Below, piece after piece: positions 32,383 through 32,906 of a DNA stretch of 64,000 nt. A program made the position numbers and the translations under genes. Positions within the stretch are counted from its first letter, which is position 1, and each line of letters opens with the position of its first letter. The notes under the pieces are model-generated. The model saw nothing but the letters and a program-made list of their open reading frames with translations, was not told where the DNA came from and ran no database searches. The DNA comes from Phycisphaerae bacterium (GTDB lineage Bacteria > Planctomycetota > Phycisphaerae > Sedimentisphaerales > UBA12454), in the NCBI GenBank assembly GCA_041652575.1, contig JBAZHC010000014.1, positions 7,137-71,136 on the forward strand, read 5' to 3'.

Positions 32383-32832
32383 ATGATAGGATATATGCTT
32401 ACATGGACGACTTATGGCACCTGGCTGCAGGGAGACGAAAGAGGATATGCTAAAGATGGCCAGATTTTGGACAAAAACGAAACGCTTGAAGAAATAAATA
32501 AATCAAATCTTAAAAAACAACCTGTCAAGTTTAATGCCAAACAGAAAGAAATCGTTAAAGAAGCAATCATTCAGGAAGCGAAAAGAATCAATCAAAAAAT
32601 ATTCGCATTAATCGTATATTCAAACCATATACACCTGCTTGTCGAGAAAAATCAAAAATCAATAGAAGCAACAGTGGCGATATACAAAACGGCAGCAAGA
32701 AAGGCCCTGTATCAGACAGGCCTTGAAGGGAAAATATGGTCAAAAGGATTTGACAAAAGATTCTGTTTCAATGAACAGGAATTAAAAAACAGAATTACAT
32801 ATATTCTTCGGCATAATGAAACAATGAAATAA
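32383..32832 (+). mobile_element. HUH/Y1 transposase-like protein (IS200/IS605 TnpA or REP-associated RAYT-like)
   Basis: I prefer ATG 32383. [19 protein letters not shown] N-terminus, HUH motif (SNHIHLLV), C-terminal catalytic-Tyr motif (ITYILRHN). No tnpB and no obvious IS ends. Confidence 0.7.
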
Positions 32833-32840
32833 ATTACTTA

Positions 32841-32857
32841 TTCCGCCTATGGCGGAA
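32841..32857. repeat. REP-like hairpin TTCCGCC-tat-GGCGGAA 9 nt after the transposase-like gene stop
   Basis: 7-bp stem. A related ATTCCGC-agcg-GCGGAACG lies at 30711-30729. Confidence 0.6.
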
Positions 32858-32877
32858 CGACGGCCCCCCAGCCCCTT

Positions 32878-32906
32878 CCAAAGTTTTTTCGAGGAAAAAA
32901 CTTTGG
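32878..32906. terminator. 13-bp perfect hairpin between convergent genes (bidirectional terminator-like)
   Basis: CCAAAGTTTTTTC-gag-GAAAAAACTTTGG. Confidence 0.45.

Follow-up and report, generated by a model that had tools for sequence, protein, structure and literature searches.

The window analysed here, a 64-kb stretch (64,000 nucleotides) of contig JBAZHC010000014.1 from a Phycisphaerae bacterium, carries a solo Y1 HUH tyrosine transposase gene which, together with flanking G+C-rich hairpins bearing a conserved CTAA foot, probably constitutes a module resembling the REPtrons, in which such a gene is combined with its repetitive extragenic palindromic (REP) sequences. The gene lies on the forward strand at 32383..32832, with its ATG at 32383 and its stop codon at 32830-32832, and encodes 149 aa according to the list of open reading frames (ORFs). 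The NCBI record of the same protein, 'MAG: transposase [Phycisphaerae bacterium]' on a 101,926-bp contig (MAG, metagenome-assembled genome), begins at M5, and the alternative start at 32395 yields this 145-aa product. The protein comprises a conserved N-terminal block, H82-I-H84 (in SNHIHLLV), Y101-K102, W119, D124-K125-R-F and Y140-ILR-H144-N (YILRHN). No second copy of the gene was detected in the 64-kb window by tblastn, and no tnpB is present at the locus, where the gene lies between an FRG-domain gene (31124-32242) and a convergent HNH_3 gene (32957-33565). The gene is real and intact, and the window contains it once. To this extent the first-pass annotation of the stretch, which had described a solo gene without tnpB whose 149-aa product has an HIH motif and a C-terminal tyrosine, is borne out.

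The conservation and the predicted fold of the protein agree with its assignment to the Y1 transposases. Among 118 homologs, G12, W14, L15, G17, N39, H82, H84, K102, W119, D124 and K125 are invariant, and Y140 and H144 are conserved in at least 90%. The AlphaFold (AF2) model, with a mean predicted local distance difference test score (pLDDT) of 92.7, places the HUH motif on the strand 82-88 and Y140 in the C-terminal helix 131-147. In a Foldseek search against the PDB, the top 30 matches were all Y1 transposases, namely TnpA of ISDra2, IS608 or a Sulfolobus IS200, or E. coli TnpA_REP (4er8); the latter had the lowest root-mean-square deviation among these 30 (4.9 Å), with a TM score of 0.56. 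The Pfam family PF01797 (Y1_Tnp) is matched marginally (24.3 bits, cut-off 23). With a ratio of non-synonymous to synonymous substitution (dN/dS) of 0.13 relative to its two closest relatives, L004 and L005, the gene is under purifying selection.

The partner DNA became apparent from related loci. We compared 80 loci from species-representative genomes with the window (81 loci, 1.1 Mb; loci are referred to by L numbers), and the first lead came from the flanks of the close homologs. In L001 and L005 (76% identity), a tandem array of AACCCCCACTAAAAGTGGGGGCTAAACAACGAACG precedes the gene and one copy directly follows the stop codon; the same hairpin lies 150 nt downstream of the gene in L003 and L006 (69% identity), and L004 (82% identity) carries a single reverse copy upstream as well as two to three downstream in the forward orientation. 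Across the 81 loci, CTAA is the most frequent 4-mer on the 3' side of perfect hairpins (208 occurrences versus a median of 23; TTTT, 133). A CTAA-footed hairpin is located within 300 nt of the gene in 69 of the 81 loci, and the density of such hairpins near the gene is 30 per 10 kb compared with 0.42 per 10 kb beyond 1 kb, an approximately 70-fold difference. Upstream copies are mostly in the forward orientation (70 versus 7 reverse) and most of them end 49-75 nt ahead of the start codon, so the usual layout, with 70 forward copies upstream and 38 reverse copies downstream, is inverted; in some loci, L005 among them, copies occur on the same strand. In 21 loci the reverse copy starts on the stop codon itself, its TTAG foot providing the TAG.

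The consensus of these hairpins is AA-CCC(C/T)(C/G) ... (G/C)(G/A)GGG-CTAA(A/C)(C/T)(A/G); the stems measure 8-9 bp and the loops 3-5 nt. Without having been a selection criterion, the outer CCC/GGG is conserved at 98-99%, whereas the inner stem is variable. Read on the complementary strand, the foot is 5'-(G/T)TTAG and thus one base off the GTAG foot of classical REPs (PMC8266576). The covariance model used for searching was built from 22 hairpins of other loci, all with 8-bp stems and 4-nt loops, because MAFFT alignments of mixed stem and loop lengths put the pairs out of register. A count of covarying pairs in the hairpin alignment is circular, since the sequences had been selected as perfect hairpins, and was not used as evidence.

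In the window, the model detects a degraded gene-proximal hairpin on the reverse strand at 32302..32332 (18.1 bits, E 2.4e-4), ending 51 nt upstream of the ATG. Its minus strand reads AACCCCCAC-TAAAA-GTGAGAGGG-CTAAACA, with a 2-nt insertion in the 3' arm relative to L004, and corresponds to CCCCCAC-TAAAA-GTGGGGG with a CTAAAC foot, a hairpin that had been overlooked in the first pass. Between this hairpin and the ATG, a consensus scan alone indicates a promoter-like site, TTTACA-18-AATAAT, at 32346..32375 on the forward strand; the spacer is conserved with L004, and promoter and terminator scans returned site numbers no higher than in shuffled sequences. Downstream of the gene, the homology with L004 continues through a TTCCGCC hairpin, breaks at a long A+T-rich hairpin (32864..32920, no strand assigned; 15-bp perfect stem at 32876-32908 and 27-nt arms of 81% complementarity), and is resumed at the foot GGGGGCTAAACA. 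The A+T-rich hairpin falls in an alignment gap of L004 and seems to have been inserted among decayed downstream REPs; the region 32833-32966 has a fold z-score of -5.0. What is left of a downstream forward REP is the 3' arm with its foot, TGGGGGCTAAACA, at 32951..32963 on the forward strand (exact GGGGGCTAAACA at 32952-32963), which overlaps the stop codon of the convergent HNH gene and aligns with the foot of the third downstream REP of L004. In the DNA fold this remnant is paired with GCCCCC at 32863-32868. The fold, and split REPs elsewhere (L085), suggested that 32860-32963 might be one REP split by an 80-nt insertion; the model match at 32923-32964 is non-significant (E 4.1), and this candidate was rejected. 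An intact and constrained gene is thus accompanied by decayed flanking hairpins, which makes current activity in this genome uncertain.

Three dispersed copies are found away from the gene. The copy at 36409..36441 (forward strand; AACCCCCAC-CACAGGT-GTGGGGG-CTAAACA; 33.3 bits, E 2e-10) has the same stem as the gene's own class and is in frame within ORF 35887-37875, while that at 34695..34727 (forward strand; AACCCCCGG-CACAGGT-CCGGGGG-CTAACC; 24.5 bits, E 6.6e-7) is in frame within ORF 34194-35882. An intergenic copy on the reverse strand at 26745..26778 (AACCCTGCCATC-GTGA-TGGCAGGG-CTAACC; 25.4 bits, E 2.8e-7) has another stem class, which goes with a different protein clade in other genomes. 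The two in-frame copies occupy the same inter-helix loop of tandem paralogs (49% identical), each combining a PMT_2-like membrane domain with TPR repeats, and they differ by paired stem changes (CCCCCAC/GTGGGGG versus CCCCCGG/CCGGGGG). This loop measures 9 aa in 61 of 70 homologs; it is 18 aa and 24 aa long in the two window genes (24 in ORF 35887-37875) and 18-38 aa in a few other genomes. At the DNA level, the longer loops correspond to model-significant hairpins of other stem classes in other genomes, for example ACCCCTAAC-ATAAA-GTTGGGGG-CTAAAC, in frame at the loop in L084 (556-587), and an in-frame hairpin with a nested insert in L085 (1538-1594). The in-frame hairpins are translated as K-Q-T-P...G-A-K-H/Q. 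By our count, the other loci have about 25 further model copies at distances of over 1 kb from the gene.

Protein clades and hairpin classes vary together. Each protein cluster (at least 75% identity) has its own stem/loop class, for example with GCAGGC, GTGAT, GCGAGC or GTAAA loops, TTCAAGAA or TAAAA, the last being that of the window's clade (the window, L004, L005 and, at 69%, L006; CCCCCAC-TAAAA-GTGGGGG). Thirteen genomes contain two to four paralogs that are always 45-55% identical; these multi-copy genomes are MAGs, and for the genome of the window itself the comparison covers 64 kb. Orthologs across genomes are 83-97% identical. IS200 copies within one genome are 99% identical, and diverged paralogs are the behaviour of the TnpA_REP-like subclass (Quentin 2018 Table 1, PMC6006769).

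With regard to the wider family, the homologs form 504 clusters at 90% identity, and the named sources are MAGs of Planctomycetota, Phycisphaerae and Sedimentisphaerales; many are labelled 'RayT' by the Joint Genome Institute (JGI) and many have a precomputed PF01797 match. A profile search of 1.84 billion representatives (50% identity) returned 2232 proteins at E <= 1e-3 and 736 at E <= 1e-10, and 315 loci of this radiation occur in species-representative genomes; the sources of the family are planctomycete MAGs and isolates. The full-length distant matches (E ~1e-19 to 1e-25; 26-33% identity), from Planctomycetaceae and Phycisphaerae, share the N-terminal block, which is conserved down to relatives at 26% identity, as well as NHVH, WT and YVxxEQ. 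These features recall class 3 of TnpA_Y1, defined by its motifs, an N-terminal extension and a mainly planctomycete distribution (Quentin et al. 2018, BMC Genomics 19:475, PMC6006769), described from 24 proteins only and left as 'needs experiments' (Quentin 2018, PMC6006769). Of its published characters, the HUH motif NHVH, W[TA], the extended N-terminal region and the occurrence mainly in Planctomycetes are found in the window's family, as NH(I/V)H, W-(T/S) and the N-terminal block. Others differ: the class 3 tyrosine motif YV[VI][AENY]EQ is replaced by Y(V/I)xxHN, with Y-x-x-x-x-Q occurring in the distant relatives only, and in place of the 5' foot CnGA of the class 3 hairpins, the window's family has AA as its 5' flank (75% and 87%) and a conserved 3' foot, CTAA(A/C). 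Judged by motifs and profile similarity, the window's family forms a subgroup that is related to class 3 and has a GFDKRFC block and a Y-x-x-x-H-N motif of its own, because the distant full-length matches display the published motifs, N-terminal extension and taxa of that class.

Based on these findings, we consider it probable that the gene encodes a Y1 HUH transposase acting on single-stranded DNA, from a Phycisphaerae/Sedimentisphaerales branch of TnpA_Y1 related to class 3, and that it forms a REPtron-like module with its flanking hairpins. The putative cognate DNA is the G+C-rich hairpin AA-CCC(C/T)N4-5 - loop 3-5 nt - N4-5(G/A)GGG-CTAA(A/C)(C/T). By analogy with IS608 TnpA and E. coli TnpA_REP (PMC8266576), we propose the following steps, in which hairpin binding, cleavage and dispersal would all be performed by this protein: (i) the protein would bind the folded hairpin and its foot on single-stranded DNA; (ii) the HUH histidines H82 and H84 would hold a metal ion; (iii) Tyr140 would cut beside the hairpin, forming a 5'-phosphotyrosine link; (iv) strand transfer would then copy or move hairpins to new sites.

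Several observations weigh against this reading. The best curated match, NCBIfam REP_Tyr_transpos (NF047646), reaches 39 bits with a cut-off of 80, and the protein has YxxxHN in place of the YxxxNP of REP-associated tyrosine transposases (RAYTs); the RAYT-like reading of the first pass is borne out in its core by the solo Y1/HUH gene, the diverged paralogs and the cognate dispersed hairpins, and the protein itself is nearest to class 3. The hairpins flanking the window's gene are degraded: the copy at 32302-32332, which aligns to the intact L004 copy GTTTAGCCCCCACTTTTAGTGGGGGTT, folds weakly (-3.2 kcal/mol). Dispersal is modest, at about 0.3-0.6 copies per 10 kb overall, about 0.3-0.4 per 10 kb beyond 1 kb from the gene in 0.93 Mb of related loci, and four copies in the 64-kb window; judged from these 64 kb and 20-kb samples elsewhere, this extrapolates to roughly 100-300 hairpins per genome. 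The relatives are known almost exclusively from MAGs, in which identical repeats collapse or cause contig breaks, and by our count about a fifth of the 80 loci end less than 1 kb from a contig end. The gene has also not stayed in place in every clade. Two clades are fully syntenic (21/21 pairs and 6/6 left flanks), but others are not (3/45 and 0/15 pairs), and neither is the window's clade, in which the window, L004 and L005 have no left flank in common and share one right flank only. In non-syntenic loci the homology extends from -76 to -115 until +23 to +28, i.e. to the outer edges of the two flanking hairpins, and therefore the whole module relocates over evolutionary time in the manner of an insertion sequence (IS). 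Sequence comparison thus suggests that the persisting unit is a hairpin-promoter-gene-hairpin module of about 560-660 bp, whose neighbours have changed many times. Such mixed IS-like and REPtron-like behaviour agrees with the published description of class 3, whose genes have several 'atypical' footed hairpins alongside, sometimes numerous in the genome, and were likened to both IS and REPtron (PMC6006769).

The same relocation is what would be expected if the 0.56-0.66-kb hairpin-gene-hairpin unit were an ordinary autonomous IS of the IS200 type, with the solo hairpins as leftovers or elements akin to miniature inverted-repeat transposable elements (MITE-like). This explanation accounts for homology that ends at the outer hairpin edges and for the different neighbours in many clades, including the window's, and MAG assemblies can conceal identical copies. 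Sequence-only matches to the PDB, weak throughout, also place IS200 TnpA slightly ahead of TnpA_REP. We nevertheless regard it as unlikely: no within-genome pair exceeds 55% identity, where the first-pass annotation had named multiple identical copies as the outcome that would speak for an ordinary IS200; the IS200 model NF033573 yields 20.2 bits with a cut-off of 55; the hairpins are mostly inverted, whereas the ends of IS200/IS605 elements are strand-specific and on one strand; in some clades the gene keeps its position across species; and each paralog has its own hairpin class.

The in-frame copies allow a further possibility to which we likewise attach a low probability, namely that CTAA/TTAG hairpins are actively inserted or swapped in place at a preferred coding site, so that an in-frame-editing transposase would exist alongside a ~0.6-kb module that still moves as a unit. 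This idea arises because the same loop holds different stem classes in different genomes and because the hairpin foot often builds the gene's stop codon.

Less probable still is a purely regulatory role, in which the flanking hairpins would be terminators, insulators or mRNA stabilisers and the protein a domesticated DNA- or RNA-binding factor devoid of mobility. The fixed spacing of the hairpins, at 49-75 nt from the start codon or directly on the stop codon, and the purifying selection on the window's gene despite its decayed hairpins would fit such a role; the family-wide retention of the catalytic HUH and tyrosine, the tandem hairpin arrays adjoining the gene, and the occurrence of the same footed hairpins kilobases away and within unrelated coding genes in several genomes do not.

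The hairpins that the first-pass annotation had singled out exist: TTCCGCC-TAT-GGCGGAA on the forward strand at 32841..32857, which starts at the 9th base after the stop codon and lies at the end of the uninterrupted homology with L004; TTCCGC-AGCG-GCGGAA at 30712-30727; and CGGAAATTCCG at 32279-32289, an 11-mer palindrome without a loop, present twice in the window. Perfect hairpins with a stem of 7 bp or longer number 81 in the window (about one per 800 bp) compared with ~34 in shuffled sequences, so that a 7-bp hairpin near the stop codon is unremarkable on its own; with an excess of about 2.4-fold, the description of the window as saturated with palindromes was overstated. The first hairpin is conserved in the closest relative, L004, alone, which has ATTCCGCC-GAA-GGCGGAAC at this position, with a change confined to the loop. 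Among the related loci, a TCCGCC-N3-GGCGGA hairpin lies within 300 nt of the gene in the window, L004 and L013 only, the remaining carrier loci having it 0.4-8 kb away, and no hairpin of this type is found beside the gene in L005 or L006, which belong to the same protein clade. That these TTCCGCC hairpins and the palindromic repeats at 26.7-31.0 kb and 55 kb are the protein's substrates, as had been supposed, is the least probable explanation, since retention of the hairpin at the same position in L004 and a similar one at 30712 are set against gene-adjacent occurrence beyond these two loci in L013 only, membership of a separate family scattered regardless of the gene, and covariance model matches limited in 26.7-31 kb to 26745-26778, of another clade's stem class, with none at 55 kb.

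The TCCGCC hairpins constitute a second dispersed family, (A/T)TCCGCC-N3-5-GGCGGA(T/C)AA, of which the 1.1 Mb of related loci contain about 25 distinct copies, most of them distant from the Y1 gene (window positions 1820, 8037 and 32841; scattered in L004-L082). No partner gene was identified for this family. Since an Rfam scan of the window yielded two tRNAs only, the hairpin regions belong to no known RNA family. Other repeats in the window include ~110-nt inverted repeats (26888-26994 and 30864-30969) that bracket an isoleucyl-tRNA synthetase gene on the reverse strand (27165-30032) and include a 36-nt perfect palindrome, CTATACTCGTATGCAGTATACTGCATACGAGTATAG, at 26911, present with two changes at 30911. 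A second inverted pair, of 37 nt, lies at 27135-27171 and 30075-30111, and neither pair is related to the CTAA-footed hairpins. A 56-nt direct repeat, CCCTTGCCCTGCATAGCATGTAGTGCGACGTAGGGTTAACGAAGGAGGAAGCGAAG, occurs at 27036-27091 and 55069-55124 (93% identity), in intergenic positions 28 kb apart, and represents another dispersed repeat family. The intergenic region 30600-30745 consists in part of imperfect 7-8-nt units starting with CAC (CACGAAG, CACGGAT, CACTGAC, CACAAAG), and similar runs of CAC units are found downstream in L023, another Sedimentisphaerales-type locus.

Observations in related loci concern the hairpin arrays and the surroundings of the gene. The tandem array in L001 (2719-2954) and upstream in L005 is built from the 35-nt unit AACCCCCACTAAAAGTGGGGGCTAAACAACGAACG and has a run of N within it; hairpin arrays break or scaffold-gap MAG assemblies. 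On a closed Anaerohalosphaeraceae chromosome (OY775912.1; L038, 10382-11107), a 126-bp unit is repeated 5.8 times in tandem at 97% identity and joins the final ~55 nt of the Y1 gene, the codons of the tyrosine motif among them, to the gene's forward hairpin, with the stop codon TAA being part of the hairpin foot. A short element, ~CTCCTTCGAC(N)GCTCAGGAC, is nested in the loops of some CTAA-footed hairpins (upstream in L027, at 1550-1580 in L085, and downstream in L067 and L015), so these hairpins may themselves be insertion targets for another repeat. In the window's clade, the gene has neighbours of a kind typically found in variable or defence regions: L001 has an MmeI-type restriction-modification gene and one with a TerB domain, L003 has DUF1016, the P0005 contig has AIPR, and the window has FRG and HNH_3. 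Location in variable regions may be the sole reason for these defence-type neighbours.

REP/RAYT systems have been worked out almost wholly in Proteobacteria, and the window opens onto a large planctomycete radiation. The system is already known in type, as a REPtron-like Y1 system, and comes from a little-studied planctomycete branch closest to the sparsely described class 3. It offers a readable partner hairpin, a sharply conserved foot and up to four paralog/hairpin pairs per genome, and therefore a natural matched protein-DNA set for studying how Y1 transposases read hairpin and foot. There are also consequences for annotation, as the hairpins break MAG assemblies and give rise to in-frame insertions as well as to ORF ends that are spurious or extended.

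In comparison with characterised systems, the family resembles class 3 TnpA_Y1 in its occurrence in Planctomycetes, NH(V/I)H, W followed by T or S, a conserved N-terminal block, a length of ~150-180 aa and several footed hairpins at the gene. In contrast to class 3, it has Y-x-x-x-H-N rather than Y-V-x-x-E-Q, GFDKRFC in place of GGSxRY, and a 3' CTAA(A/C) / 5' TTAG foot rather than a 5' CnGA. With the REPtrons (TnpA_REP/RAYT with REPs or bacterial interspersed mosaic elements, BIMEs; E. coli yafM, 4er8; Pseudomonas group 3) it shares a solo Y1 HUH gene, inverted cognate footed hairpins that are also dispersed, diverged paralogs each with its own hairpin class, and protein-hairpin co-evolution, which has been demonstrated experimentally for TnpA_REP (PMC8266576). 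Unlike REPtrons, it scores below the curated cut-off and lacks YxxxNP, its foot is TTAG rather than GTAG and often coincides with the stop codon, its hairpins are concentrated at the gene with modest dispersal, and its module has relocated in several clades. Fold, size, catalytic motifs, hairpins at both borders of a ~0.6-kb unit and the best sequence-level PDB matches connect it to IS200/IS605 TnpA (IS608, ISDra2, IS200), from which it is set apart by the absence of near-identical within-genome copies and of tnpB, a tyrosine motif other than Y(I/V)xxQ, mostly opposed border hairpins and solo hairpins. Short palindromic repeats of ~100-150 bp that are tolerated in frame in protein-coding genes are known as Rickettsia palindromic elements (RPEs), for which, to our knowledge, no dedicated transposase is known. 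The in-frame hairpins described here are likewise palindromic repeats within coding sequences, but with ~30 bp the inserts are shorter, and they belong to a family with a putatively cognate Y1 gene.

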